Shown: positions 7,180 through 63,276 of the stretch, piece by piece | Layout: each line of letters opens with the position of its first letter | Numbering within the stretch: the first letter of the stretch is position 1 | Origin: a virus | IMG/VR virus record: IMGVR_UViG_3300021077_000115 | Coordinates: 110,064-174,063 of that record | Length of the DNA: 64,000 bases | Direction: 5' to 3' (one strand) | Notes under the pieces: generated by a model | Databases searched by the model: none | Told to the model about the DNA's origin: nothing | Seen by the model: only the letters and a program-made list of their open reading frames with translations | Position numbers and translations under genes: made by a program

Positions 7180-7527
7180 GGTGGAAGTGTTCGGAATCGA
7201 ACCGAAGTCTTGCGATCCTCTCTTATTTCCATCATTCACGTGCGTAGCCACTGTATCCCCAATGGCTGAGTTCGTCAATTCGGTGGACGACCTATTCACC
7301 TGTTTGTCTCGTAAGCAACTTCGGTAACCCAAGTTACTTACCAGCCTTTGTGGTTGGCAATCCTGACCGCTACCAAGACAATCTTGCGGAGGACCGGCCG
7401 TGCTACTTATTAGGCAGCTGCGGCGTATGCATTATCATTCGCATTTAGAACGCCTAATGTTTGGGTGTATTAGGACCACCTACACGCAGGAAATATTTCA
7501 GATCCCAATCGAAAACCTTTCACTCCC
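7180..7527 (-). ncRNA. ssrA: tmRNA (ssrA)
   Basis: Minus-strand 5' end GGGAGTGAAAGGTTTTCGATTGGGATCTG resembles E. coli GGGGCUGAUUCUGGAUUCGACGGGAU. Tag frame at revcomp 7442..7407 reads GCG AAT GAT AAT GCA TAC GCC GCA GCT GCC TAA TAA = ANDNAYAAAA** (cf. ANDENYALAA). 3' end has T-arm TTCGG-TTCGATT-CCGAA, then CACTTCC-A-CC, which pairs with the 5' GGGAGTG. Confidence 0.8.
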
Positions 7528-43456: not shown

Positions 43457-43741
43457 ATGAAGAAACATCCAGTACAAGCGCTTCTAGAATCAGAAGGCAT
43501 CAGAACATTCTCATACAACAAGTCTGGTGATAAATGCTTAGGTGCATATTGTACGTTAGGAGGTTTGTTAAGAGCGGTTAGTGCGGCTTCATCAAATTTC
43601 AAAAATAGTGATTCTGATCTGAGTTTGTTTATAACAGAAATATCTGGGGCAACAACAAACTCAGGAAGATTATTCTATTGGCCCAATGTAAGGTTTACTG
43701 AACCAGAAGTGGTAGTAATGTCAAATGCACTTACTACATAA
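43457..43741 (+). CDS. hypothetical protein
   Basis: 94-aa ORF. Confidence 0.4.
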   Translation: MKKHPVQALLESEGIRTFSYNKSGDKCLGAYCTLGGLLRAVSAASSNFKNSDSDLSLFITEISGATTNSGRLFYWPNVRFTEPEVVVMSNALTT

Positions 43742-44393
43742 TCCAAGATCTGCCAAAATAAGACTGCTTATAGCGATAGCATTATCCATCACAGCTTACT
43801 TCATAACCCCAAATATGAAGAGCGATATTCTGCGAGCATTGATCGCTTGGAATGTTGGTACTTGGTCAGAAATCATAATGACCTGGACCATTATTCTAAC
43901 GTCTAATTCTAGGACTACAAAGGTTCGAGCAGCCGGCAATGACCCTGGGCGGTTCTTCGTTCATCTGATCGTATTGTTGTCGGCAGCAATCTCGTTGCTA
44001 GCTTCGATTGTTTTGATGCGTGAACATGAAGCCAAAGCTGCGCACCAGATTTTGTGGTGGATTGTTTGCTTGGCCGGAGTTGGTGGTTCTTGGATTTTGA
44101 ATCATACTAGCTGGACATTACGCTACGCTCGGATGTATTATCGCCGGACACGCCGAAATGGCGAGGAGCGTATCGTTGGCGGTCTGGCATTTCCAGGCGA
44201 TCAAGAACCAGACGATTTAGATTTCGCGTATTTCGCATTCACAATTGGCTCTTGTTTCCAAACTTCTGACATTGCTATTACCAGCAGATCAATTAGACGA
44301 GTTGCTCTAATTCACGCAATACAATCATTCGCATACAACACAACGGTAATAGCATTTATGTTGAATGCAATATTCAGTTTGATGAGTGGATAA
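43725..44393 (+). CDS. integral membrane protein (DUF1345-like)
   Basis: 5-6 TM helices; LDFAYFAFTIGSCFQTSDI motif. Confidence 0.45.
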   Translation: MHLLHNPRSAKIRLLIAIALSITAYFITPNMKSDILRALIAWNVGTWSEIIMTWTIILTSNSRTTKVRAAGNDPGRFFVHLIVLLSAAISLLASIVLMREHEAKAAHQILWWIVCLAGVGGSWILNHTSWTLRYARMYYRRTRRNGEERIVGGLAFPGDQEPDDLDFAYFAFTIGSCFQTSDIAITSRSIRRVALIHAIQSFAYNTTVIAFMLNAIFSLMSG

Positions 44394-45718: not shown

Positions 45719-46626
45719 TTACTCGCGATGGAAAGCTTGAGATTTTTGAAAACTTCATTGTAGATGCTAGTCTACCAAAACATTTTGGAAAGAAACGCTC
45801 AGAGCTTTCCAAAATGGTAAATGCTTGGGTTGATTATCACAGAGATAGCGACAGCGAGTCCAAGAATGATGGTGATGTTGGGTTTATCCAGGCATGGAGA
45901 GAACCCGAAGAAATGGATATTCCTGGTCTTGTTAAGACCGAAGGTGACGGATTTATAATTGGGAATAGAAAATATCGCAATAAGAAGGTTTGGTCTTTCT
46001 TATTATTCCCGATATTATGGATGGTTGGATTATTCAGAAAAAAGAAGATGGCAAAGATTGAAGCAGCAAGAATGTCCGTAAAGGACTTCTTCGCCTCAAT
46101 AAAAAACTCTGCCAGAGAGCTTGAGATTGTTGCCGAGCGCGCTGCCGGATACGAGAAAGCCTTGATCAACGCCACCAAAGCCGGACAGGTTGCCCTTAAG
46201 GAGCGTCTGTTGAGTGGCTTGGATGCGCACCGCTCTGAGACCCAACTATTTGCTTCAGATCATAAGAAATACGTCACTGAAGAAGATGTGGTGAAATTTG
46301 TCAAGCAAGCCAAACGTGGATTGCGGCTTGATTGGATTAAGAACTTTACTAGAATTATTCCTAATGAAGTAATTTTTACCAAAGTAAGTCTTGATGAATT
46401 GACTGTGTTTGATAACTACGTTGTCATGCACTACGATCCAAACAAGAATTCTTGGGCGGAAACTCAAGAGGAAGCAAATAGGAGAAGAGACCCTATATTG
46501 TTTGGTGTAATTCTTGGTAGTAGAAAACTGTATTTCGTTGGTGATTGGGTTGATGATCTATGCGACCTGACACTTGAGCAGATAGCCGCTGAGCTTGGGC
46601 AGCAAGCCATAAAGGAAATTGTATAA
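45715..46626 (+). CDS. hypothetical protein
   Basis: 303 aa; internal TM segment. Confidence 0.5.
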   Translation: MITRDGKLEIFENFIVDASLPKHFGKKRSELSKMVNAWVDYHRDSDSESKNDGDVGFIQAWREPEEMDIPGLVKTEGDGFIIGNRKYRNKKVWSFLLFPILWMVGLFRKKKMAKIEAARMSVKDFFASIKNSARELEIVAERAAGYEKALINATKAGQVALKERLLSGLDAHRSETQLFASDHKKYVTEEDVVKFVKQAKRGLRLDWIKNFTRIIPNEVIFTKVSLDELTVFDNYVVMHYDPNKNSWAETQEEANRRRDPILFGVILGSRKLYFVGDWVDDLCDLTLEQIAAELGQQAIKEIV

Positions 46627-46958
46627 TGAAAACTAGGGAGCTTGATGATTGTGTCTCTGGTTTAGTGCCAGCCTTAATGGATCATCTTACTGATGACAAA
46701 CTTAGCGATCGAGACACTCATTTATTAAGAAGGCTATCTGATAAAATTCACGAAGTCCTTGGCGATGATTGTGGGGAGGATAGCGAAACCGAAAATGAAG
46801 ATAGCGGAGACGAACAGGAAGAAAAGTTTTCTATCAGGAGCGGTTGTCATGTATTGACGAGAGAACTTCAAAGACACAGTGGGGAACTTACTTCTTACGA
46901 AAGAACCTGTCTTCTTGAATTAATCGAATCTGCAGCAAAAGTAATGAGATTTTACTGA
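46626..46958 (+). CDS. acidic small protein
   Basis: 110 aa; DSETENEDSGDEQEE acidic run. Confidence 0.45.
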   Translation: MKTRELDDCVSGLVPALMDHLTDDKLSDRDTHLLRRLSDKIHEVLGDDCGEDSETENEDSGDEQEEKFSIRSGCHVLTRELQRHSGELTSYERTCLLELIESAAKVMRFY

Positions 46959-46970
46959 AAGGAAGCCAAA

Positions 46971-47482
46971 ATGTTATGTATTGGTCTGTTTGGTACGTGT
47001 GATAAAAATAGATGGAGAGATCCGTTTATGGCCAAGTATGATGAGCTTGGTATTTCATACTTTAATCCGATGGTGGATGATTGGAATCCAGGAATGGTCC
47101 CCCTCCAGAACCAGTGCTAGGCGATCCTAAATTCGAGCTGCGGCTCACAGAGTTCAAGTCTGATGTGGGTTCTATTCCAATCACCTGGTGCGTTGATCGT
47201 GATTGGCTGTTCAAGAACAGTGATTCGGAACAATACGTTCTACTTAGTGTAGCTCCCCCAGAGAAGGGTGGAGACAAAGCTGAATGGCGCGGCTGGGCCA
47301 AGTTGTCAGATATGATGGCCTACGTCACCTTCTATCGTCCTGGTAAAAATAGGATCCTTGCGCGCGTCACACCAACCAAGAAGCAGATTGGATGGAGCGC
47401 ACCCGTGACGGTGGTAACTGGCAAGGGCGTGCTATGGATTTTCCAGAGTCATACTATGAAGAAAATTGCAAGTATCTATTAG
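46971..47482 (+). pseudogene. gene split over two frames at a C5 run (possible frameshift)
   Basis: MLCIGLFGTCDKNRWRDPF...GMVPLQNQC* (46971-47120) and the overlapping ORF 47081..47482; both frames span ccccc at 47098-47102. Confidence 0.3.
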
Positions 47483-48222
47483 CAAAGCACTGGATGTTCG
47501 AAGATAGGCTGTGGAACTACATTGACATTGATATGCCTAGTGGATGCTTTGCCAAAGAACCATCTGATTGGGAAAAGAATTGGGTAAATTTCTTCTTCAA
47601 GAACAAAGCTGTTGATCAGTGTGAATTCCGACGAAGAAGAATGTTGGCGTACCCGGTACAGCCGTTTGTATTCGCGGTCATCTTCTTGTTCTTCGCTTTG
47701 ATAATTTCATTAGTTCAGATATTCAACCTAATGATTGGGCGTTGGACAATTTGGGAAGAGGTTTCAGCGTTTAAGATTGATAGAAAAGTTGACTTCTTGA
47801 CCATTGAAAAATTTGGCAACCTTAAATGGTTATTGTTGCCAATGCCATGGTTAATTACAGTCGCATTCGTTCTTTTGAAAATCACCCATTTGAAGGTATG
47901 GATGCTGATACCTCCAGCATTCCTATTACTTATTCCAATTGCTTACTTGATTTTAGCTATAGTCATAATTGGTTGTGAAGCTTTTGGTAAATGGATAACG
48001 CGGAGAAGTCCCAGAATACAAGAGGCGCGTAAGAAGAAGCTTGAGAAAGAGCGTCAACGCCAATTAGCCCTCCGCAAAGCAGAGCTTGAAGCGCTCGATC
48101 TACTACTGTGTTCTTCTGGTAAAAGAATAACCAAGATCAAAGATCTGCCAAAGAATAAGCGAACTATCAAATTGAAGTTTAATGCTGTAAAGAGCCGTGT
48201 ATGTAGGCCATTTGCCAGATAA
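47392..48222 (+). CDS. membrane protein with C-terminal basic coiled coil
   Basis: 4-5 TM helices; start uncertain. Confidence 0.45.
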   Translation: MERTRDGGNWQGRAMDFPESYYEENCKYLLAKHWMFEDRLWNYIDIDMPSGCFAKEPSDWEKNWVNFFFKNKAVDQCEFRRRRMLAYPVQPFVFAVIFLFFALIISLVQIFNLMIGRWTIWEEVSAFKIDRKVDFLTIEKFGNLKWLLLPMPWLITVAFVLLKITHLKVWMLIPPAFLLLIPIAYLILAIVIIGCEAFGKWITRRSPRIQEARKKKLEKERQRQLALRKAELEALDLLLCSSGKRITKIKDLPKNKRTIKLKFNAVKSRVCRPFAR

Positions 48223-48313
48223 GTAACACAACAGCGCACATCTATATTACCAAAGAAATGTATTGATTTTTTTTATAGATCGTGCATGAATATCCTCCAC
48301 ACTGAGGTGGCGG

Positions 48314-48595
48314 ATGTTAGTAAAATCAGCGAACTTATTTGGTAGTCCCGTAGAACTTGATGACGCTTGGATAGCAGATCATAAAGATCATTCTTTGTGC
48401 TGGATGAATCATACTGTATTCGATAAGAAAAAGAATATTAGCCATATATTCAAAGAATGCATATGTTACTCTTGCACAAAGATAGCTCGGAAGTTGATTG
48501 GAGATATTGGTCAGATTAAAGCTCCAGTAACTTCCGATAAGAAGGCGAAAGTAATAAAGGGTAGGCGAAGTAAAATTGAGAGTGTATTCTTTTAG
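48314..48595 (+). CDS. hypothetical protein
   Basis: 93-aa ORF. Confidence 0.4.
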   Translation: MLVKSANLFGSPVELDDAWIADHKDHSLCWMNHTVFDKKKNISHIFKECICYSCTKIARKLIGDIGQIKAPVTSDKKAKVIKGRRSKIESVFF

Positions 48596-48683
48596 GTCGA
48601 GAGTCTTAGCCAGAAAAACTTAATAACCCAGTCCTAGTTTGCCTTCCCGTAGTTCTAGGACTGGGTTAATTTATTGGGACAAA

Positions 48684-49022
48684 ATGAAACGCCAAATATT
48701 CAAGTCAAAGATCCATCGAGCAACCGTAACTGGATCAAATATAGACTACGAAGGTAGTGTTACGATTGACTCTAATTTAATGCGAGCGGCTGATATTGTT
48801 CCATATGAGGCAGTTCATATTTGGAACATAACTAACGGTTCACGCCTTTTCACATACGCCATTCAGGGTGATAATGACAGCGGAGAAATTTGTATCAATG
48901 GCGCTGGGGCAAAGCTGTGCAATGTTGGAGATCTAGTTATTATCGCAACATTTACCGAGATGACAAACAAAGTAGCCCGCAAGTGGATACCAAGGGTTGC
49001 CAGCAGTTCAACGGAAACTTGA
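48684..49022 (+). CDS. panD: aspartate 1-decarboxylase (pyruvoyl-dependent)
   Basis: [78 protein letters not shown]; the [10 protein letters not shown]...YEGS(pyruvoyl Ser)...ICINGAAA pattern is diagnostic. Confidence 0.7.
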
Positions 49023-49032
49023 CTAAAGTTAC

Positions 49033-49269
49033 TTGACTCCGCTCAACCCGTGGGTAATCCTTTTATCAGATCGGATGTACATGAAGATGAAAGTGGTTCG
49101 AGTTTCGGCCACTGAGTTCGAATTGGAAGACGGTAGGGTATTTCCCCACGTCACCCCACTCGAACCGGTTCCGACTCCCGAAGAGTTTCAAGTACATTAC
49201 GACCTGTGGTCAGATCGGTTGAAGTCCAAGGATGTCCAGTGGCCTCGTTTCGCTCAAAAAAGCGGCTGA
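49033..49269 (+). CDS. hypothetical protein (overlaps tnpA start)
   Basis: 78 aa; weak. Confidence 0.3.
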   Translation: MTPLNPWVILLSDRMYMKMKVVRVSATEFELEDGRVFPHVTPLEPVPTPEEFQVHYDLWSDRLKSKDVQWPRFAQKSG

Positions 49270-49855
49270 AATCCTTGGTTGTGGTACCTCGACGCTTCGG
49301 ACTTGGGACAAGAACAAGAGCCTCGTAGCCGTTAGAACCCCAGGTGGTCAGCGCCGGTACCGCACTGAAGACCTAGACCGCTTCCAAGGGATCATCAAAA
49401 AGACCTCCAAGATGTCGGAAAATGTCGCTGTCTACGCTCGGGTTTCGAGCCATGAGCAGAAGGCTAAGGGCGACCTTGACCGTCAAAAGGGAAGGCTTCT
49501 AGAGCATTGCGTCAAGCAGAGCTACTCGGTGACGCATGTCATGGAGGAAGTCGGATCTGGGATGACGGACACTCGGCCGAAGATGCTCCGCCTTCTTGAG
49601 TTGGCCACGAGGGGCGAGATTGGGCGGGTGGTTATCGAGCACAAGGATCGACTCGCGAGGTTCAACTTCAACATATTCCAAAAGTTCTTCGAGAGTCATG
49701 GTGTACAGGTTGAGTGGCTGGAAAACGTGCTCCCAAAGTCCTACGAGGCCGAACTAGTCGAGGATATGGTCAGCCTCATGTCCAGCTTCTCAGCCAAAGT
49801 TTACGGAAAACGGAGCGCTGAGAACCGCCGAAAGAAGAAGCAAGAGGCCGCCTGA
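49232..49855 (+). CDS. tnpA: IS607-type serine recombinase/transposase TnpA (MerR-like HTH + resolvase catalytic domain)
   Basis: LKKAAEILGCGTSTLRTWDKNKSLVAVRTPGGQRRYRTEDL HTH, then VAVYARVSSHEQK catalytic-Ser motif. Confidence 0.8.
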   Translation: MSSGLVSLKKAAEILGCGTSTLRTWDKNKSLVAVRTPGGQRRYRTEDLDRFQGIIKKTSKMSENVAVYARVSSHEQKAKGDLDRQKGRLLEHCVKQSYSVTHVMEEVGSGMTDTRPKMLRLLELATRGEIGRVVIEHKDRLARFNFNIFQKFFESHGVQVEWLENVLPKSYEAELVEDMVSLMSSFSAKVYGKRSAENRRKKKQEAA

Positions 49856-50190
49856 TGGAACCTAATGAGTCAAAGATTGAGGTTTTCGCAAGGTGGTACG
49901 GGTATCCGTCTGTCTACTGTCAAGCGAGCACACCAGATTACCGATATGTCGTAGCTATCCCTAGACTCCCCTACAACATACTGGAAGAATTCAAGAAGGA
50001 ACTGGACTCTCACTCCTCCGATGGTGATCCATACTTCGTGTTTGAATACTCAGATCAGTTCCTCAGTATAGCCGGTACCTTTGATATTCCGCGTAACCAC
50101 TGTGAGAGTTGGGTGCAATGCTACTTGACTGCCCGCCCTGAGGGTGGGCTCAGATTCAAAAACGAGCCATGGTCAGAAAGGAACCCATGA
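49855..50190 (+). CDS. hypothetical protein between tnpA and tnpB
   Basis: 111-aa ORF. Confidence 0.4.
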   Translation: MEPNESKIEVFARWYGYPSVYCQASTPDYRYVVAIPRLPYNILEEFKKELDSHSSDGDPYFVFEYSDQFLSIAGTFDIPRNHCESWVQCYLTARPEGGLRFKNEPWSERNP

Positions 50191-50603
50191 CAAGTTACTC
50201 CAACTTCTTTGAGATGCTGGACGCTATTGAAGCGAAGATGCAAGACCCACGTTGTAAGGAGGCTGGACTCACCCCTTACACAGGGGAGCCTCTACTAACG
50301 AGTATGGATCTTGGGTGGATCGTTGCGCTTCCCCTAAGCGAACGGGACGAAACATTCCAGTTCAGTGTGAGTCTACGTCAGATAAAGATTGACCGGCAAG
50401 ATCCTAGATGGGCCGATGCTTATGCCAGGCTCCAATCATTTACGACCCACTTCATTACATGTCCAAAGCATGGGGTGGTTAAAGGCATCCCGATACACAA
50501 GCTTCAAGGCAAGAAAGAGGGATCTGAGACGCTGGTATGCATACCTTGTGTGGCTGAGCGCATGGTGAATCCTGTTCGAACTTCAGCCAATCTCTCGATA
50601 TGA
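50169..50603 (+). CDS. hypothetical protein between tnpA and tnpB (C..H...C..C)
   Basis: 144-aa ORF. Confidence 0.4.
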   Translation: MVRKEPMTSYSNFFEMLDAIEAKMQDPRCKEAGLTPYTGEPLLTSMDLGWIVALPLSERDETFQFSVSLRQIKIDRQDPRWADAYARLQSFTTHFITCPKHGVVKGIPIHKLQGKKEGSETLVCIPCVAERMVNPVRTSANLSI

Positions 50604-52027
50604 AGAAATGTCGGTTCTTCATGCTGCATCCTGAGTGCAACCCTGGGAAGATTCAATCCCTGGAAGCTCTTCACGTCGAGTACATAGCTTATGTCCGGAT
50701 CTGCGTTCAGACGATGCTCAAAGCCCATAGGCTGACTTTGCCCCGCTCGGAGAAGCAGGACTTCTTCCCCAGGGCTGAGAAGCTTACGTCTCAGATTGAG
50801 AAAAACGCCCGCGACCATGCCATCCAGATTGTGAGCACTTGGGCTAAGTCGGTTTATGCCAGGAAGATCAAGACTTTCATCAGGTTATCTTTCAAAGAGG
50901 GGAACTTTGACGAGGACTTCTGTAAGCAGCTTTACACGGTGGGTAAGTACTTGATTCATGAGCCGAAGGAAACCGTGTCCCAGGAAGCAATTGATCTGTA
51001 TTGGTCTTGGCTCTCTGACCCAGAAGTAGTGGGGAACCCGCCTTCCATATCCAGTCGGATTCCAATGAGGATGTCGGAGAACACCTGCTCATTGGAAGAC
51101 CCAGAAGAGGCTACCCACGCGGATCTTTGGCTCAAGATCTCAACTTTGATTTCTCGGAAGCTTGCTTGGCTACCACTGGTTGGGAACCCATACGTCAAGA
51201 AGTCATCTGACGTAAGTAAGGGAATCCACGCTAGAAAAGACCGAAAGGGCCGTTGGCGGTTCGAAGCCGTTGATACCAAAGAGTGGTTGGTCTGCGAGGC
51301 CGAACCTGACTTACCCAGGATTGGAGTCGATGTAGGACTAAACGTGGTAGCGGCTACTTCGAGCGGACACGTGTTTGGGGCCTACCTAAAACCCAAGTTC
51401 AACAGGCTCTACGACAAGGTCAGGGAAGTCAGGGCGAACCGCCAAAGGCAGGATCTCAAGGAGAACAGTCCTAGGCTAGACCGACTAGAATCACGCCTCT
51501 CTGGCTTGACCAAGAGCTTCACGGGACGGGTATCCAATGAACTGATCCGAACGTACTCTGAGTCCGTCTTCGTCTTAGAAGACCTAGATCTTCGTGGTTG
51601 TCGTGGGCAAAAACGCTTCTGTTACAGGGAATTAGCTCATGCCCTTGAATCAAAGGCTCCAACTGAAAAGGTGAATCCGGCCTACAGTTCTCAGACATGC
51701 CCTTCGTGTGGGCATGTCTCTAGATACAATCGGGCTGGAATAGATTTCATCTGTCGCCAGTGCGGCAGGATTTCACATGCCGACGTGGTAGGAGGGATCA
51801 ATTTGCTCGGACGTTCCGAGAGCAAACAGATTGGCCTCGATGATCATCCGTCGGAAGTGAAGGGAGTGCTTGTGAGGCTATACTGGTCTAGGAGGAATCC
51901 GGATCAGGACTGTCCACAAGACTTCTTGAATAAATACGCGCCATTACCGTATGGCCGAAGGCTTACTACCAGGGGACTCTCTCGAAAGAGAAGCACTGGC
52001 ATAGCTTTTAATCAGGTAGCTGCTTGA
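50600..52027 (+). CDS. tnpB: TnpB (OrfB_IS605/RuvC-like RNA-guided nuclease family)
   Basis: RuvC-I IGVDVGLN, RuvC-II VFVLEDLDL, zinc finger CPSCGH...CRQCG, RuvC-III HADVVGGINLL. Confidence 0.8.
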   Translation: MKKCRFFMLHPECNPGKIQSLEALHVEYIAYVRICVQTMLKAHRLTLPRSEKQDFFPRAEKLTSQIEKNARDHAIQIVSTWAKSVYARKIKTFIRLSFKEGNFDEDFCKQLYTVGKYLIHEPKETVSQEAIDLYWSWLSDPEVVGNPPSISSRIPMRMSENTCSLEDPEEATHADLWLKISTLISRKLAWLPLVGNPYVKKSSDVSKGIHARKDRKGRWRFEAVDTKEWLVCEAEPDLPRIGVDVGLNVVAATSSGHVFGAYLKPKFNRLYDKVREVRANRQRQDLKENSPRLDRLESRLSGLTKSFTGRVSNELIRTYSESVFVLEDLDLRGCRGQKRFCYRELAHALESKAPTEKVNPAYSSQTCPSCGHVSRYNRAGIDFICRQCGRISHADVVGGINLLGRSESKQIGLDDHPSEVKGVLVRLYWSRRNPDQDCPQDFLNKYAPLPYGRRLTTRGLSRKRSTGIAFNQVAA

Positions 52028-52221
52028 CTACACGTAAGTTTGAGCAACTTCTTGAGTACGGTAATCCTGGTTGATGAAAAAAACAAGATAACACCCATTG
52101 TTGGTATTGCTATCGATCTGGAAACCGCACCCATTAGGCCTGATGAAAAAAAACCAACTACAATAATGGTGAACACTAATTACTGGCAGAACCCTATCGG
52201 AACTAATAGCACAGGTATCGG

Positions 52222-52506
52222 ATGAAATCTTTCATACCTCAAGCCTGGGCAATTCCGCCAGGTAGACATAGATCACAATTCAGAGTTGTAACTAAGTTCT
52301 TTGTATTCAAATATGTTTTACCAACTATTGTTGATGGATATTATCTTCAACAACGGCGATGGAAGCAAAATATTATACAGGAATATAAGGTAATTGGTGA
52401 TTTGTATTGCGGATGTAGAGAAGTTCATAAATGGATTGATGTTTCTTGGTACGATAACTGCCTAGAAGCATGTGGTGATACCTGCGACCTGCGACCCAGG
52501 CCATAG
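52222..52506 (+). CDS. hypothetical protein
   Basis: 94-aa ORF. Confidence 0.35.
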   Translation: MKSFIPQAWAIPPGRHRSQFRVVTKFFVFKYVLPTIVDGYYLQQRRWKQNIIQEYKVIGDLYCGCREVHKWIDVSWYDNCLEACGDTCDLRPRP

Positions 52507-52884
52507 ATGAGAAGTATCGTAAAAGTACGCTGTGATTTTTGTAACGCAAAGATGGCCACGTGGGAATATATGCCACGTGATTTCGAATACTATTGCGATG
52601 ATTGCGTACCGCGCGGATGCTCTTGTAATCTAATCGGCGATGTAGATGATGAGTCTGGAATTGAGGCTACCGATGAGCTCGGTAGACTTCTTCCATGCTG
52701 TGAGTTTTTATATTCTAAGAATGGATGGACGGCTAATTACCTTCTGAAAAAAGGATGTCAATTTCCATTCAAACACAATTACCAACACCCTAAGTGGGTC
52801 AATATTGTAGATCAAAAATACATGTTAGCTTTCATGAGGAGGCTATATGCTACGAGAAGCAAGAGAAGCATTTCTGAAACATGA
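52507..52884 (+). CDS. Cys-rich hypothetical protein
   Basis: CDFC...CDDC...CSC. Confidence 0.4.
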   Translation: MRSIVKVRCDFCNAKMATWEYMPRDFEYYCDDCVPRGCSCNLIGDVDDESGIEATDELGRLLPCCEFLYSKNGWTANYLLKKGCQFPFKHNYQHPKWVNIVDQKYMLAFMRRLYATRSKRSISET

Positions 52885-53164
52885 TCTTTATAGAATAATA
52901 TTGCCACCTGAGGCTTGGGATGGGGCATACAAACTTGAAGATCTTCCAGTTCCAACACACAAAAAGGTTGCATCTAAAGGTGCTCGCTTTGTATATTGCG
53001 AGACCGATAGAAAAGACGCTGGAATGGGTTGGTTCGCAGATGCCGGTAATGGTAATTACAGAGCTGGTAATTGCGGGTTTGGAAAGATGGGTGGTGCTTG
53101 GGCCAAAGAACATCTAACTGAACCAGTCGATATTGTAGGCACCAGGTTTAGGAATCAGTGGTAA
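52847..53164 (+). CDS. hypothetical protein
   Basis: 105-aa ORF. Confidence 0.4.
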   Translation: MLREAREAFLKHDLYRIILPPEAWDGAYKLEDLPVPTHKKVASKGARFVYCETDRKDAGMGWFADAGNGNYRAGNCGFGKMGGAWAKEHLTEPVDIVGTRFRNQW

Positions 53165-53208
53165 ATCCTCCTGAGTAAAGAGATTATGACTACTATCACG
53201 AGTTTATA

Positions 53209-53754
53209 TTGATACATAGCAACACCTCTAAAAGAGACAAGGTTTATAAATCCCTTGGTAAAATCATGACTAATCTATTCCCAACTCCAAGTGATTTGAA
53301 ATATGGACACTCCAAAACTCTATGCCCTCATGACGATGTCTTATCATTATTCAATAATGAAGCCCAACATAAATCCGAATGCATAAACAAGGCTGTGGTA
53401 GATTGGATTGAATCAGAAGCTTCGAGGCGTGGGTGGAGTAGCGTTGAGTGGTTTAATGATTCTTTCACTGGTCGTGGTTGTTGGTTATCATTAACTCCAC
53501 ATCCAATTCCGTCAATTGGAGAGGCACTTTCAAGAGCATTCACTCGCATTGCTCATCATGCTTGCCGGCAAGGTGAATCTAACAATAGATGCTGGCCAGA
53601 TATTTCGGAGCTTCCAGAACCAGAAGATTGGAAGATGGTTGGAAATAAATACTCAAAAGAATTCGCAATAGAATTAATGACTATATATTTCTCAAAGGAA
53701 AACTTCTTACAAGACTTAGTCATGATTGGTCATTTTCGAGAAAGCGGATTCTAG
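53209..53754 (+). CDS. hypothetical protein
   Basis: 181-aa ORF. Confidence 0.45.
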   Translation: MIHSNTSKRDKVYKSLGKIMTNLFPTPSDLKYGHSKTLCPHDDVLSLFNNEAQHKSECINKAVVDWIESEASRRGWSSVEWFNDSFTGRGCWLSLTPHPIPSIGEALSRAFTRIAHHACRQGESNNRCWPDISELPEPEDWKMVGNKYSKEFAIELMTIYFSKENFLQDLVMIGHFRESGF

Positions 53755-53763
53755 GAGTATACA

Positions 53764-54027
53764 ATGCGAACATATACATTGTCACGAATTTATATTGATA
53801 CAGAACACCAGAGAGATTGCTGTGGGGATATAAATTATACAAATAGTGAGCCATTTCTTATTATAAAGTGCAATGATGTCCCAATTAGATTTGCATCTGT
53901 TAAGAGCATTGAATCTAGTAGAGATATTTTTGAGAAACTAGACACTAACATCTTTACAGTTGAAGATATATTAGATGTTTTGTGTAAAAGTAAATTAACT
54001 ATCTCACACGATATGGAAACATTATGA
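53764..54027 (+). CDS. hypothetical protein
   Basis: 87-aa ORF. Confidence 0.4.
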   Translation: MRTYTLSRIYIDTEHQRDCCGDINYTNSEPFLIIKCNDVPIRFASVKSIESSRDIFEKLDTNIFTVEDILDVLCKSKLTISHDMETL

Positions 54028-55286
54028 CTAGAACATTTGAATTAGGCGGCGAAGTAAACACTAGCAAAATAAGTTCTACTGTTAGTGTTCGTGACCAAAT
54101 CATACAAAAAGTTGGTGGGGATATTGAACAGGTTTGCGAGCTTGGTCATCCTCTAATCGGCGGAAAACCAGGATATCGTGATGAATCGTATATATCAAAT
54201 CTAGTTGGTCTAGCCCACCTTTCATTCTCTAGTCACCGCCATATGATATTGGATCCAGATGCAGTCTGGATTACAATCGAACATGGGCTGGCAACTCACA
54301 TCAAAGAGAATGCCGAAGCTCTTCGTGACAAGTTCGTTTCATTCAAGGGCAAACGAACAATCGATATCAGGCGAGACGAATTTAGGCGCGGCTCAATCAA
54401 TAATTGGGAGGGATGCTTTGATGAGTTCTCGGAGAAGATTGGGGAATTTATCGGCCCAAAGAAAGATTTGATTGTCGGAAATTTCTCGACCACAGGACAG
54501 CTACAAAGAGTATCCTCCGAAATTGTTCTGATGGATGCTATGAGTAAATACTTCGATTACTCAGTCAAAACATGTTGTCACATTCCTGTGATAACCCTCA
54601 CTGGTACTGTGGAAGATTGGGAACGCATCCGTGATAAGGTGAATTCATTTGATGAATTTGGTTTGTCTTGGTGGGCAGATCACCTGAAGCCAGTCCTTGA
54701 TCAATTAGTTCTAGCCGCTAAGGGAGAGGTTGATATTGACTTCTGGAAGAGCTGGTATAAAGAGGGCGGCGGTAGTGGTGGCCCATTTATCTCAGGACAT
54801 GTCAACGCATTCTTTCCATATTTAGGAAGAGATAATAGTAAAAACAAGTATATGGGTACTTGTCCGTCTCATCACGGGAATACTCTATCCTCTTTCAACC
54901 AATCTATTTCTAAGGTTCCATTCATTTGGGATTACTATAACCAGGAATATCCTATGGAGTTTGTTGGTGGATTGATTGGGCTAACACAAGATGACTCTGG
55001 CCGTGTTCAATGTTCCTTTGGCTGGGCTGTTCGAGATGAGTCAGTTCCACTCTCTAATTACCCAATCGAGAAGCTTGTGAAGGATATGGTCATCCACAAC
55101 AAAGATGGAGAGGCCGGATTATTGAAGAGAGCTGAGGCAGAGCATTGGGATAATGCTCCAGATGACAAGCAGCTTTACGAAGTTCAAATCGAATGGAAAG
55201 ACGGTTTGAAGACTTATAAGCAATGGGATTTTAATAATTTGTTCGTCAAAGAACCTGCTAATGGAGAGCAGATGGTGGTAGAGTAA
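54024..55286 (+). CDS. hypothetical 420-aa protein (no family assignable by eye)
   Basis: Long ORF; GGGSGGPFISGHVNAFFPY glycine-rich motif; stops and starts overlap across 54024-57292. Confidence 0.55.
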   Translation: MTRTFELGGEVNTSKISSTVSVRDQIIQKVGGDIEQVCELGHPLIGGKPGYRDESYISNLVGLAHLSFSSHRHMILDPDAVWITIEHGLATHIKENAEALRDKFVSFKGKRTIDIRRDEFRRGSINNWEGCFDEFSEKIGEFIGPKKDLIVGNFSTTGQLQRVSSEIVLMDAMSKYFDYSVKTCCHIPVITLTGTVEDWERIRDKVNSFDEFGLSWWADHLKPVLDQLVLAAKGEVDIDFWKSWYKEGGGSGGPFISGHVNAFFPYLGRDNSKNKYMGTCPSHHGNTLSSFNQSISKVPFIWDYYNQEYPMEFVGGLIGLTQDDSGRVQCSFGWAVRDESVPLSNYPIEKLVKDMVIHNKDGEAGLLKRAEAEHWDNAPDDKQLYEVQIEWKDGLKTYKQWDFNNLFVKEPANGEQMVVE

Positions 55287-55287
55287 T

Positions 55288-56166
55288 ATGCCAACAAGAA
55301 TCATTGCATTAGGTACAGGCTCTGCCTTCACAATGAACAACTACCAAACTAACTTTGTCATCAAAAGAAATGGCAAGTATCTTTTGGTAGATTGTGGTGG
55401 CGATGTCAGATTTAGCCTTAGAGATCAGGGCCTGTCTGCCAAGGATATAGATGCTGTCTATATTTCACATGCTCACGCAGATCATGTGGGCGGCATGGAG
55501 TTCTTGGCATTCACACGCTACTTTACAAAGAGATCAATGGAAAATGCTAGGGCCCTCGCGCGAACTGTCGATCCTGAGCATTCCCCAGAGCCACTTCAAT
55601 TACCAGTGCTATTCTGTGAGCATGGGATGATTCGAACACTTTGGGATCACTCATTACGAGGAGGTCTCGAAGGACTTGAGGGAATCGACGCCAACATCGA
55701 CACCTATTTCAGGGTACATCCAGTGCCAAAAAACGGATCGTTCGAGTGGGAGGGCTTGAAGTTCGATATCGTTCAAAGCCTTCATGTCTCTGCTAAATAT
55801 AGTATTGTTGATTCATTCGGGCTGATGTTTACTGATGATATTGGGTATCGAATATTCATCACTACAGATGTTCAGTTCGCCCCAGAGACATCTATGAAAG
55901 CCTATTACAAAGAGGCTGATGTCATAATTCATGACTGCGAAACAGGATTCAAAAGCGGAGTTCACGCCCATTACGATCAGCTAAGGACATTGGATAATAG
56001 CATTAAGAATAAGATGCTTTTGGTTCACTACCAAGACAATGTCTTGGAAGATTGGAATGCGTGGGTGGACAAGGCCAACCAGGACGGCTTCGACGGATTC
56101 GTCAAGCCTGGGCCGATTTGGTCTGATGAACCACCTGACGTAATCGCAGCAACAACGAATGTTTGA
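55288..56166 (+). CDS. metallo-beta-lactamase-fold hydrolase (RNase Z / cyclic-nucleotide phosphodiesterase-like)
   Basis: ISHAHADHVGG (HxHxDH), downstream ITTDVQ and IIHDCE, then HAHYD metal-ligand-like residues. Confidence 0.6.
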   Translation: MPTRIIALGTGSAFTMNNYQTNFVIKRNGKYLLVDCGGDVRFSLRDQGLSAKDIDAVYISHAHADHVGGMEFLAFTRYFTKRSMENARALARTVDPEHSPEPLQLPVLFCEHGMIRTLWDHSLRGGLEGLEGIDANIDTYFRVHPVPKNGSFEWEGLKFDIVQSLHVSAKYSIVDSFGLMFTDDIGYRIFITTDVQFAPETSMKAYYKEADVIIHDCETGFKSGVHAHYDQLRTLDNSIKNKMLLVHYQDNVLEDWNAWVDKANQDGFDGFVKPGPIWSDEPPDVIAATTNV

Positions 56167-56242: not shown

Positions 56243-57292
56243 ATGAAGAAAATGAAGATTGGTGTTTTCATTGCTCGGCTACAACCGTTTCATCTTGCCC
56301 ACGTTGATATTGTAAAGTTGGCAATGAAAGATAACGATCATGTGGTTATAATTCTTGGCTCTGCATGTCAGGCTAAGACAATCAAGAATCCATGGACTAC
56401 TGACGAGCGCGAATTGATGATTCGCAAATGTCTTACGTCAGAAGGAAATACCCACATAAGTGTTGTTGCTGCTAAAGACTATTTCTATAATGACAACATG
56501 TGGCTATCTTCATTGCAGTCTGCATTGGGGTCTGTAAAGGTCAATGGCGTTGAAGTTGACCTTGATGATTGTGACGTAACGCTTTATGGTCATGATAAGG
56601 ATAGGTCAACATTCTATCTCCACTTATTTCCTAAGTGGAAGCTCAATGATGTTGGAAACTTACGCACAGAGTTTCCTAGGCTAGATGCAACGTTGGTCAG
56701 ATCATTTTTCTTCAAAGGTAATACGGCTGAGTTAAGAAAGTTTATACCACAACCTGTATATGATATGTTGCTATCAGAAATGGGAACTAGTACATACCAA
56801 AATCTTGTTGCAGAATTCGACCACATTACTGAGTATAGAGCGCTATGGGCCTCATCTCCGTATCCAGTTCAATTTGTGACAACCGATGCTCTTGTGATAA
56901 AGTCCGGACACGTACTAATGACGGTGCGTGGCGGATATCCAGGCAAAGGTCTAATCGCGCTACCTGGCGGATACTTGAATCCAGATGAGCGTATAGTTGA
57001 CGGATGCCTTCGTGAGTTAAAAGAAGAAACGCAAATCGCTGTTAGCAAAGATGAGTTGAGGAAGGCAATTGTTGATCAGAGGGTCTTCGATCATCCAGAA
57101 CGTTCTTTGCGCGGACGAACTATTACACATGGTTATTGCATAAATCTCGGTGCCGGAGACCTTCCAAAAGTAAAGCGCGGTGACGATGCCGCTGAAGCGT
57201 TTTGGATGCCACTTCGAGATGTTTATCGTAGAGAAGAAGATTTCTTCGAGGATCACTTCCACATCATATTCTTTTTTACTTCGAAATTTTAG
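56243..57292 (+). CDS. nadM: bifunctional NMN adenylyltransferase (NadM-type) / Nudix ADP-ribose pyrophosphatase
   Basis: N-terminal MKIGVFIARLQPFHLAHVDIV (archaeal-type NMNAT (H/T)xGH); C-terminal GGYLNPDERIVDGCLRELKEETQI Nudix box. Confidence 0.8.
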   Translation: MKKMKIGVFIARLQPFHLAHVDIVKLAMKDNDHVVIILGSACQAKTIKNPWTTDERELMIRKCLTSEGNTHISVVAAKDYFYNDNMWLSSLQSALGSVKVNGVEVDLDDCDVTLYGHDKDRSTFYLHLFPKWKLNDVGNLRTEFPRLDATLVRSFFFKGNTAELRKFIPQPVYDMLLSEMGTSTYQNLVAEFDHITEYRALWASSPYPVQFVTTDALVIKSGHVLMTVRGGYPGKGLIALPGGYLNPDERIVDGCLRELKEETQIAVSKDELRKAIVDQRVFDHPERSLRGRTITHGYCINLGAGDLPKVKRGDDAAEAFWMPLRDVYRREEDFFEDHFHIIFFFTSKF

Positions 57293-61977: not shown

Positions 61978-63276
61978 GTGAAGAAAAACTACATTCTTGA
62001 TACTAACGTGCTGATTCATGACCCACAATCGATATTCAAATTTGAGGACAACAACCTATACATTCCAATTTACGTATTAGAAGAACTAGATAAATTGAAG
62101 AGCGAGCTTTCCCTTCGTGGACGAAATTCACGCGAAGTTTGCCGATTGCTCGATGACCTGCGCTGCCAAGGCTCATTACCAGAAGGGGTTCCGGTAGGAG
62201 ATGGTAAGCTAATCATTTACGTCCCCCAAGAGCGGAAGGTCATCAAGGTTGCTCTCGATTCAAAAAGCATGGACAACGCAATACTTCAGTGCGCTGTTGA
62301 AATCAAGGAATCTTCCGAACTTATATCCATCATGGTAACCATGGATGTTAACCTTCGCATCCGCGCTGAATGCATAGGAGTTCAAACAGCTTCATACGAA
62401 TTCCAATCAGTAGACACTTCGCATATGATTACTGGTCACACCAATATGAATGTGGATCTTGAAGACATTGATAGGCTATTCAGTGAAGGATCTATTTTAC
62501 CAAAAGAATCTGATGAGGAGTTGTTTGATAACATCTGCATCATGCTAAAAGATCCAAGTGGCAAAACTGCTATTGGAAGATACAATAAGAAAAAGAACAT
62601 CGTAACTCCAATTCGTCCACATGGCGATGTGATGGGTATCAAGCCAAGGAACGTAGAACAGAAATTCGCATTGGATTTGCTACTCGATGATAATGTCAAA
62701 ATCGTAACCCTATCTGGTACCGCTGGTGGTGGTAAAACACTACTTGCTTTGTGTGTTGGTTTACAAAAGACGCTTGACGGCAAATATTCAAGACTACTTG
62801 TCAGTAGACCAATCATGCCTCTAGGTAAAGATATTGGATATCTAAAGGGAACTCTTGAAGAGAAGATGAATCCTTGGATGCAACCAATTTATGACAATCT
62901 AGAATTGCTCATGATGCAGGGCGGCGGAAAACGCAAAGGTCTCAAGTATGATGATTTGTTTGAACAAGACATTATTCGCGTAGAGCCTCTGACGTATATC
63001 CGAGGAAGAAGCTTACCTGGCCAATTCATTATTATTGATGAGGCACAGAACCTAACTAGTCATGAAATTAAAACAATCATTACAAGATGCGGTGAAGGCT
63101 CGAAGATAGTATTAACTGGTGATCCTGAACAGATTGATAGCCCGTACATGGATAAGGGATCTTGTGGATTAAGTGTTGCGGTCGAGAAACTTCATGATAA
63201 TCCTATTGTAGGTCATCTCACCTTATCTAAGGGCGAGCGTTCTGAGCTGGCAAATCTAGCAGCTAATCTGATGTAG
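61978..63276 (+). CDS. phoH: PhoH2 (N-terminal PIN domain + PhoH-like ATPase)
   Basis: PIN ILDTNVLIHD; Walker A LSGTAGGGKTLLA; Walker B/DEAQ IIIDEAQN. Confidence 0.8.
   Translation: MKKNYILDTNVLIHDPQSIFKFEDNNLYIPIYVLEELDKLKSELSLRGRNSREVCRLLDDLRCQGSLPEGVPVGDGKLIIYVPQERKVIKVALDSKSMDNAILQCAVEIKESSELISIMVTMDVNLRIRAECIGVQTASYEFQSVDTSHMITGHTNMNVDLEDIDRLFSEGSILPKESDEELFDNICIMLKDPSGKTAIGRYNKKKNIVTPIRPHGDVMGIKPRNVEQKFALDLLLDDNVKIVTLSGTAGGGKTLLALCVGLQKTLDGKYSRLLVSRPIMPLGKDIGYLKGTLEEKMNPWMQPIYDNLELLMMQGGGKRKGLKYDDLFEQDIIRVEPLTYIRGRSLPGQFIIIDEAQNLTSHEIKTIITRCGEGSKIVLTGDPEQIDSPYMDKGSCGLSVAVEKLHDNPIVGHLTLSKGERSELANLAANLM

Follow-up and report, generated by a model that had tools for sequence, protein, structure and literature searches.

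Which parts of a serine-recombinase transposon serve its movement, and which are simply carried along, is the question raised by one locus in a 64,000-nt stretch of viral DNA (IMG/VR record IMGVR_UViG_3300021077_000115, positions 110,064 to 174,063). This whole stretch is referred to as the window, and all coordinates are positions in it. Here, genes for an IS607-type recombinase (tnpA) and for a homolog of the RNA-guided nuclease TnpB (tnpB) are separated by two small open reading frames (ORFs), ORF2 and ORF3. An initial annotation, made from the letters alone, had proposed one IS607-like TnpA-TnpB element and left it open whether the two additional ORFs were passengers or accessory genes. 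According to the comparison with sibling copies described here, 48994-52062 is very probably a single autonomous and recently mobile IS607-family transposon, inserted at an AAGG^T site within a phage panD gene; as part of the same reading, held with the same high confidence, ORF2 and ORF3 are hitch-hiking cargo, which neither forms part of TnpA or TnpB nor is required for mobility. The element and its genes are as follows.

48994..52062, + strand: whole IS607-family element, 3069 bp, bounded by homology to the sibling loci L002, L005, L011/L018, L015, L017, L020, and L022, the flanks being unrelated
48994..49074, + strand: non-coding left end, with high nucleotide conservation between copies and two direct CTTGAC motifs (49018 and 49032)
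49075..49269, + strand: ORF0, 64 amino acids (aa), or 62 aa from the ATG at 49081, with a 38-nt overlap with the start of tnpA
49232..49855, + strand: tnpA, 207 aa, IS607-type serine recombinase (NCBIfam NF033518; Pfam Resolvase, MerR_1, and HTH_17)
49855..50190, + strand: ORF2 (cargo gene 1), 111 aa, orphan, predicted all-beta small-barrel protein
50187..50603, + strand: ORF3 (cargo gene 2), 138 aa, or 144 aa from an alternative start at 50169, with a CxxH...CxxC C-terminus
50600..52027, + strand: tnpB, 475 aa, RNA-guided nuclease homolog (Pfam PF07282) with a RuvC triad and a CCCC zinc finger

Sibling copies were found first through homologs of ORF2, and then with the conserved right-end motif, which led to 13 further loci on viral and metagenome contigs. 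All the copies found lie in phage or metagenome contigs, none in species-representative bacterial and archaeal genomes, where the right-end motif itself gave no match; a megablast search of 46000-55000 against GenBank phages returned no match either. In more than ten copies, homology sets in at 48992-48994 (A[A/G]GGGTTGCCAGCAG...) and stops at 52062 (...CTTGAGTACGGT), with eight different left flanks and twelve different right flanks beyond these points, so that one element with defined ends can be delimited. The right end lies 35 nt past the tnpB stop codon and the left end about 240 bp upstream of 49232; the limits first proposed, 49232-52230, were therefore wrong, and an additional gene, ORF0, belongs to the element on its left side. 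The element has a GC content of 51% (50–55% over about 49000-52050); elsewhere the window has 44.8%, and the local level is about 40%. The five genes, in the order ORF0, tnpA, ORF2, ORF3, and tnpB, have overlapping starts and stops, which for the last four take the form TGATG, ATGA, and ATGA, as had been noticed for the two middle ORFs. The length of 111 aa given for the first of these stands; for the second, the 144-aa open frame is present, but the start called on sibling contigs, ATG 50187, is likely the real one and gives 138 aa.

Evidence for mobility comes from two contigs, L020 and L022, which carry window positions 48994-52062 at 99.77% and 99.94% identity, respectively, between flanks unrelated to those of the window on both sides. 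This indicates that the five-gene unit has moved recently between sites, and the comparison suggests that it has probably also moved between genomes. The proposal of one IS607-like TnpA-TnpB element is thus borne out, as the same five genes are met again elsewhere as one unit bounded by identical ends.

The insertion site can be read from the two halves of a split aspartate 1-decarboxylase gene.

48684..48993, + strand: 5' part of panD (aspartate 1-decarboxylase), Pfam Asp_decarbox positions 1-107/115, in synteny with contig L031
48992..48995, + strand: left junction AAGG, target and TAM-like motif (target-adjacent motif), with the GG shared and the crossover ambiguous by 1-2 nt
52063..52225, + strand: 3' part of panD, displaced by the insertion; its product shares 53% identity with the L031 PanD over residues 100-151 of the latter (E = 9e-15), and it is also placed by nucleotide alignment to the L031 empty site

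The ORF listed for the 5' part starts with TTG at 48639 and stops at 49022, its last 8-9 codons (VASSSTET) being supplied by the left end of the transposon. Similarly, the listed ORF 52040-52225 (61 aa) has a TTG start inside the right end of the element, while the rest of it is the displaced PanD C-terminus. L031, a syntenic viral contig of IMG/VR, keeps the gene order up276-up93-panD-dn94-dn125-dn105 without the element, and its 151-aa PanD matches positions 1-114/115 of the Asp_decarbox profile. Its empty site, GAAGG^TGATC, holds AAGGT once and reads ...TGGATGCCGAAGGTGATCTTGGTTGATAATAAG..., and the window flanks rejoined with a single GGT read ...TGGATACC-AAGGTAATCCTGGTTGATGAAAAAAAC...; from this comparison, the target is AAGG^T, with a shared GG and no duplication. 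The initial annotation had suggested a comparison with a relative lacking the insertion, and L031, which was reached through a neighbouring protein, supplied it. Joined-flank patterns, whether exact or gapped, gave no match to an empty site in IMG/VR. The GC content of L031 is 43%; in every other context the flanks of the element have 49–53% GC (51–53% in L020 and L022), like the element itself.

The right flank also accounts for two repeats that had been seen after tnpB and proposed as the right end or omegaRNA scaffold, within 52030-52230. Two exact copies of TGATGAAAAAAA are indeed present, at 52072 and 52141, but the proposed role is rejected: both lie beyond the homology boundary, in the panD tail, where they are Asp-Glu-Lys codons encoding (V)DEK(N) and (P)DEKK. 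The motif is not significantly enriched, with 3 matches at up to 1 mismatch versus 1.24 expected and 9 of 100 shuffles reaching 3.

The assignment to IS607 relies on several features. TnpA scores 190.8 bits (cutoff 110) against the NCBIfam model NF033518 'IS607 family transposase', covering profile positions 1-187/187, and in Pfam it shows an N-terminal MerR-type helix-turn-helix (HTH) domain (MerR_1, aa 7-56) followed by the Resolvase catalytic domain (aa 65-205), in agreement with the original description of a serine recombinase with a MerR-type HTH. The catalytic motif YARVSSHEQ, with Ser72, can be read directly from the sequence. IS607 integrates at a GG dinucleotide (PMC13565253), and here GG stands at both junctions in 8/8 contexts, without any flanking direct repeat that would mark a target-site duplication. 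The ends are asymmetric: two direct CTTGA[CG] motifs lie near each of them, and no terminal inverted repeat between left and right end was among the repeats found. The CTTGAC motifs at 49018 and 49032 are candidate TnpA-binding subterminal repeats. When the left end was scanned with the sigma-70-type promoter consensus, there was no match within the element, and no CRISPR-like array was found near it. All of the testable IS607-defining features are thus present except the adjacency of tnpA and tnpB, which lie 760 bp apart in the window and adjoin each other in the siblings L011/L018, L015, and L017. Since adjacency is lost here and kept in these canonical siblings, the window copy is a derived variant of an IS607 member.

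The canonical siblings also indicate how the additional genes came in. Two window segments, 48992-49840 and 50600-52062, are directly joined in them, and they encode complete TnpA (207 aa) and TnpB (476 aa) proteins, the tnpA TGA overlapping the tnpB ATG (...GCGGCATGAAGAAG). Window positions 49841-50599 (about 760 bp) therefore correspond to an insertion exactly at the tnpA/tnpB boundary. In all three cargo lineages the cargo begins at one common boundary, ...GCCGCYTGATG followed by ORF2; what comes after ORF2 differs:

Window lineage: ORF3
L002: ORF3 broken by a 5-nt deletion, then genes of 84 aa and 132 aa
L005: a 153-aa gene, in a copy with a nonsense codon in tnpA and with a nucleoside deoxyribosyltransferase gene interrupting tnpB

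This pattern points to a single capture of ORF2, which would have been followed by turnover of the cargo downstream.

Several of these copies are derivatives in various states. L005 (5140-8904) is a decaying sibling, in which the tnpA nonsense codon lies at position 140 and ORF2 carries a 50-aa N-terminal extension; its tnpB is cleanly split by the phage deoxyribosyltransferase gene (phrog_12607, 164 bits), the sole family match among the searches with alternative cargo. L009 (1886-3432, equal to L008) and L007 are tnpA-less derivatives of the family, L009 retaining, about 85 nt ahead of tnpB, a degenerate stretch that resembles the left end, and L007 having no more than about 20 nt in common ahead of the start codon. 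Finally, isolated copies of the right-end terminus, 27-29 nt long (GTTTGAGCAACTTCTTGAGTACGGT) and without an adjacent tnpB, occur at L010:1167-1193, just after an RNase HII-like gene, and at L012:1790-1818, just after a CYTH-like gene; these may be relics or something else.

The homology searches of the middle ORFs, which had been suggested as a check, revealed a tiny stand-alone family for ORF2 and confined ORF3 to this sub-lineage. The ORF2 family counts 10 cluster representatives among 1.84 billion proteins. Three members, P0002, P0009, and P0011, sit by themselves in neighbourhoods of small orphan ORFs that contain no insertion sequence (IS), and since they lie outside any IS, ORF2 derives from a stand-alone gene family. 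Ratios of nonsynonymous to synonymous substitution (dN/dS), from which the values for L005 tnpA and L009 tnpB were discarded as mis-registered, are 0.05-0.14 for ORF2, close to those of tnpA (0.03-0.08) and tnpB (0.08-0.10); ORF2 is thus under strong purifying selection. Substitutions in ORF3 relative to L002 are distributed 13/16/34 over the three codon positions, and this bias to the third position shows that ORF3 has evolved as coding sequence; at its C-terminus it shares 62% identity with a distinct small gene that lies in the flank of L005. Neither ORF2, ORF3, nor the alternative cargo genes matched a family in Pfam, NCBIfam, PHROGs, or PADLOC. A first AlphaFold2 model of ORF2, built from 7 sequences, was too poor to use, with a predicted local distance difference test score (pLDDT) of 57. 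Of the two roles first considered for the middle ORFs, passenger is the one favoured by these data, as the cargo-free siblings are complete and ORF2 has independent homologs under purifying selection.

ORF2, ORF3, or both could instead be functional accessory factors that regulate or modulate TnpA or TnpB, comparable to Arc in IS605 or Orf121 in IS91. Their location within the operon with coupled start and stop codons, the retention of ORF2 under strong purifying selection in all three cargo lineages, and the accessory regulators documented in related IS families (10.64898/2026.09.24.754181) agree with such a role, but it seems rather unlikely given that the cargo-free canonical siblings are intact in several contexts, that members of the ORF2 family stand alone without a nearby IS, that ORF3 is frameshifted in L002 and replaced in L005, and that the searches run found no DNA-binding or other recognisable domain in either protein. 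The middle segment of 760 bp might also be a small independent mobile cassette nested in the IS, the variable content resulting from insertion activity of its own. This would fit the fact that the content varies between copies at a position that is always the same gene boundary, as well as the clean insertion of the deoxyribosyltransferase gene into the L005 tnpB and the confinement of the L004 ORF2 homology block to the ORF. However, no repeats, ends, or recombinase tied to the segment were found, the stand-alone ORF2 locus and the IS copies share no flanking sequence, and gene-sized mosaic blocks are ordinary in phage genomes, which together make a nested cassette quite improbable.

Hardly any weight is left for the idea that tnpA and tnpB are two separate insertions flanking resident genes, or that the middle ORFs are frameshift artefacts of a longer TnpA or TnpB, the outcomes that the initial annotation had named as fatal to its proposal. 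Solo tnpB derivatives of the family do exist (L007 and L008/L009), but the five-gene block recurs with identical outer ends at 99.8–99.9% identity between unrelated flanks, and the syntenic L031 lacks the entire block, ORF2 and ORF3 included. As for frameshifts, canonical siblings that lack the middle segment still encode full-length TnpA (207 aa) and TnpB (476 aa), and ORF2 has a homolog family of its own. Both versions were rejected on the grounds of the recurring unit, the empty site, and the full-length sibling proteins.

Unlike the cargo genes, ORF0 is part of the core that the element has in common with its canonical relatives, together with the left end, tnpA, tnpB, and the omegaRNA-like structured RNA. 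Its reading frame is intact in all full copies, its homologs form 17 clusters at 53–98% identity, and an alignment reaching down to 48% identity retains 17 invariant columns. Wherever the contig extends far enough, an IS607-type tnpA lies downstream of it, including in more distant canonical ORF0-TnpA-TnpB elements. No match to ORF0 was obtained in Pfam, NCBIfam, PHROGs, or PADLOC. Its synonymous divergence (dS) is low, so the DNA of the ORF0 region is itself constrained, as expected of a transposon end. Taken together, these data make ORF0 a conserved small accessory gene of this IS607 subfamily, previously undescribed.

The nuclease gene and its presumed RNA lie at the other end of the element.

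51823..52062, + strand: candidate omegaRNA scaffold, which extends from within the 3' part of tnpB to the right end, with an approximate 5' limit
52063..52082, + strand: predicted guide segment AATCCTGGTTGATGAAAAAA, the flank directly 3' of the right end, assigned by position only

TnpB matches Pfam PF07282 (Cas12f1-like_TNB) at 50.6 bits (cutoff 26.3) and aligns to Cas12f and Cas-Phi structures. The claim of intact RuvC motifs and zinc finger was confirmed: D244/E327/D395 and C367/C370/C385/C388 are present and invariant in five aligned family members, including a 47%-identical homolog in LR745208.1. Conservation is higher over roughly the final 240 nt of the element than over the remainder of tnpB. 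In this region, RNAalifold predicted 69 pairs, 8 of them with compensatory changes, against 0-2 compensatory changes in slid controls; 96% of cells are paired, against 30–49% in these controls. The window sequence folds with z = -2.77, none of 200 shuffles being as stable. The candidate RNA matches no Rfam family, and the scaffold first sought within 52030-52230 is replaced by a candidate that lies mostly inside the 3' coding region of tnpB and ends at 52062.

In TnpB biology, the guide is located at the 3' flank (PMC8612924, PMC11061315), and the sequence directly after ...GAGTACGGT, at the right end, differs in every context. At the left end, GTTGCC is preceded in 8 contexts by the pentamers CAAGG, GGGGG, GAAGG, GAAGG, TAGGG, AAAGG, GAAGG, and CAAGG, with the consensus NAAGG, which resembles the AG-rich IS607 TAMs AGGAG and GAGGG that adjoin the left end (PMC11061315). 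The triad, the zinc finger, the 3' RNA structure, and NAAGG would fit a functional TnpB/omegaRNA pair, as inferred from sequence.

The best solved-structure match of TnpB is Cas-Phi3 (Cas12j, PDB 7odf), ahead of Cas12f and TnpB entries; the zinc-finger/RuvC-III segment, aa 357-398 (51668-51793), is about 60% identical to it, over 41 residues only. A weaker, novel reading of this resemblance would place the huge-phage TnpB lineage close to the stock from which Cas-Phi (Cas12j) arose. The homolog mentioned above, L001 (LR745208.1:176734-188020), is a solo TnpB of 484 aa in a 485-kb uncultured huge phage; the same record has two more TnpB-like places, with a CYTH-like gene nearby, as in L012.

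Several observations weigh against the interpretation as an autonomous, mobile element with passengers. L015 and L017 show 100% identity over the entire element and its right flank, but from the left end outwards they have nothing in common; this reflects a second context or else a repeat at which the assembly branched, and calls for caution in multi-site claims from metagenome contigs. More generally, the siblings were taken from assembled metagenomes, in which chimeric joins can arise at repeats. The rejoined flanks of the window leave a 1-nt frame discrepancy in panD near the junction. TnpB reaches 86.1 bits against NCBIfam NF040570 (guided_TnpB), below the cutoff of 100, and 35.7 bits against NF038280 (IS607_TnpB), below the cutoff of 350; its N-terminal 200 aa match no profile, the curated models covering only aa 205-407, and by curated-score criteria it appears to be a divergent member. 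The covariation was obtained from 8 fairly similar sequences in a partly coding region, so that its conservation has two possible causes. No Rfam match was found for 48800-52400 (Rfam 15, E<=1), and hence no known IS607 guide-RNA family; RAGATH-18, which is among the Rfam families, was not found near tnpB in this search. The activity of TnpA and TnpB, the limits of the omegaRNA, the TAM, and the guide are inferred, and the cargo genes may yet be functional accessories rather than hitch-hikers.

On the reading of a mobile element with passengers, the following mechanism can be proposed. As in the published biology of IS607, TnpA would excise the element as a double-stranded circle, with the predicted junction ...CTTGAGTACGG/GTTGCCAGC... 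(in short, ...GAGTACGG/GTTGCC...), and integrate it at GG. TnpB with its omegaRNA, guided by the 3' flank, would cut uninserted alleles beside an AG-rich TAM (about NAAGG), and recombination would copy the element and its cargo into the cut alleles, especially effectively among replicating or co-infecting phage genomes. In one sub-lineage, ORF2 would have entered precisely where the tnpA stop meets the tnpB start, with later cargo turnover downstream, the cargo being drawn from the orphan gene pool of phage-like contexts. Because the start/stop codon overlaps are kept, the cargo genes are probably translated as part of the transposon operon.

A more far-reaching version can be put forward only tentatively, as a reading of low probability. 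The tnpA-tnpB boundary would act as a gene-capture site and TnpB/omegaRNA homing as a gene drive, spreading orphan cargo between co-infecting large phages; the retained cargo, ORF2 above all, would then be of selective advantage to the phage or to the element, for instance through an anti-defence function or by controlling the nuclease. Nuclease drive has been shown for plasmids (10.1101/2025.02.20.638934), and the composition is compatible with it, with a 51% GC element in a 45% GC phage and near-identical copies in genomes of 51–53% GC.

The element resembles IS607 of H. pylori and the ISFba1-type IS607 TnpB systems (PMC11061315) in its MerR-HTH serine recombinase with tnpB downstream on the same strand, its asymmetric ends without inverted repeats, its GG insertion without target duplication, the AG-rich motif by the left end, and a candidate structured RNA where tnpB and the element end. 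It differs from IS607 by the conserved small ORF0 overlapping the tnpA start and by 760 bp of cargo, two orphan genes, between tnpA and tnpB, giving 3.07 kb versus about 2.3 kb for its own cargo-free siblings. Its TnpB has 475 aa, compared with 387 aa for the ISFba1 TnpB, and unlike other IS607 TnpBs, which use a RAGATH-18 guide RNA (PMC11061315), its 3' RNA has no Rfam match. TnpB transposons with a serine recombinase have been noted to carry cargo in rare cases (the 'Ser-3' branch, Altae-Tran et al. 2023, PMC10691335); compared with this survey-level remark, the cargo-free form, the capture point, the turnover, the empty site, and near-identical multi-site copies are described here for one family. 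Like the Arc-encoding IS605-family elements (10.64898/2026.09.24.754181) and IS91 with Orf121, the element has a small accessory ORF overlapping the start of the transposase gene, here ORF0. In contrast to Arc, ORF0 has no ribbon-helix-helix or other recognisable domain, and its host element is IS607-type rather than IS605-type. The likeness to nuclease-driven homing lies in a nuclease that would cut the element-free allele in a multicopy, recombination-proficient replicon, where repair copies the element in. The differences are that the specificity would be RNA-guided through the 3' flank and that the driven unit would include unrelated cargo; for the present element, this is an expectation only.

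The window seems to come from the genome of a large phage, because it holds a tmRNA, a tRNA, panD, an Apyc1-like gene, and a PIN-PhoH gene, because an identical ORF3 sequence is recorded for a contig of about 392 kb, and because the syntenic L031 is an IMG/VR viral contig; the genome is probably huge. TnpB genes are frequent in phages (PMC12607003). A search of the whole window with Rfam at the gathering threshold found only two RNAs:

7180-7527, - strand: tmRNA (transfer-messenger RNA), tag peptide ANDNAYAAAA, Rfam 96 bits
7699-7772, - strand: tRNA-Thr(TGT), adjoining the tmRNA

Downstream of the element, at a distance of 3 kb, 55288-56166 (+ strand) encodes a metallo-beta-lactamase-fold protein that matches the anti-Pycsar Apyc1 family (PF23023, 109 bits) and is likely an anti-defence gene, judging by this match. 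Further neighbours are a DUF4419 protein (54024-55286), a cytidylyltransferase-like and NUDIX protein (56243-57292), a PIN and PhoH fusion (61978-63276), and a DUF1345 protein (43725-44393).

Insertion sequences are defined as carrying only what moving needs, and loaded TnpB-type elements are mentioned only as rare cases. What the comparison suggests to be new is a natural series within one family, with a conserved ORF0, an exact capture point with cargo turnover, an empty site, and evidence for the mobility of the loaded element. The series comprises a cargo-free form, three cargo loads at one point, a tnpA-less derivative, decaying copies, an empty site, and near-identical loaded copies; in the window, it includes a phage auxiliary metabolic gene, panD, split by an IS607-type element. 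The compact TnpB, with a clear right end and a flank-derived guide position, is of practical interest for nuclease discovery. Overall, the family offers a tractable system for the acquisition and spread of genes by a minimal RNA-guided transposon, for TnpB homing as a possible phage gene drive, and for the role of ORF0.

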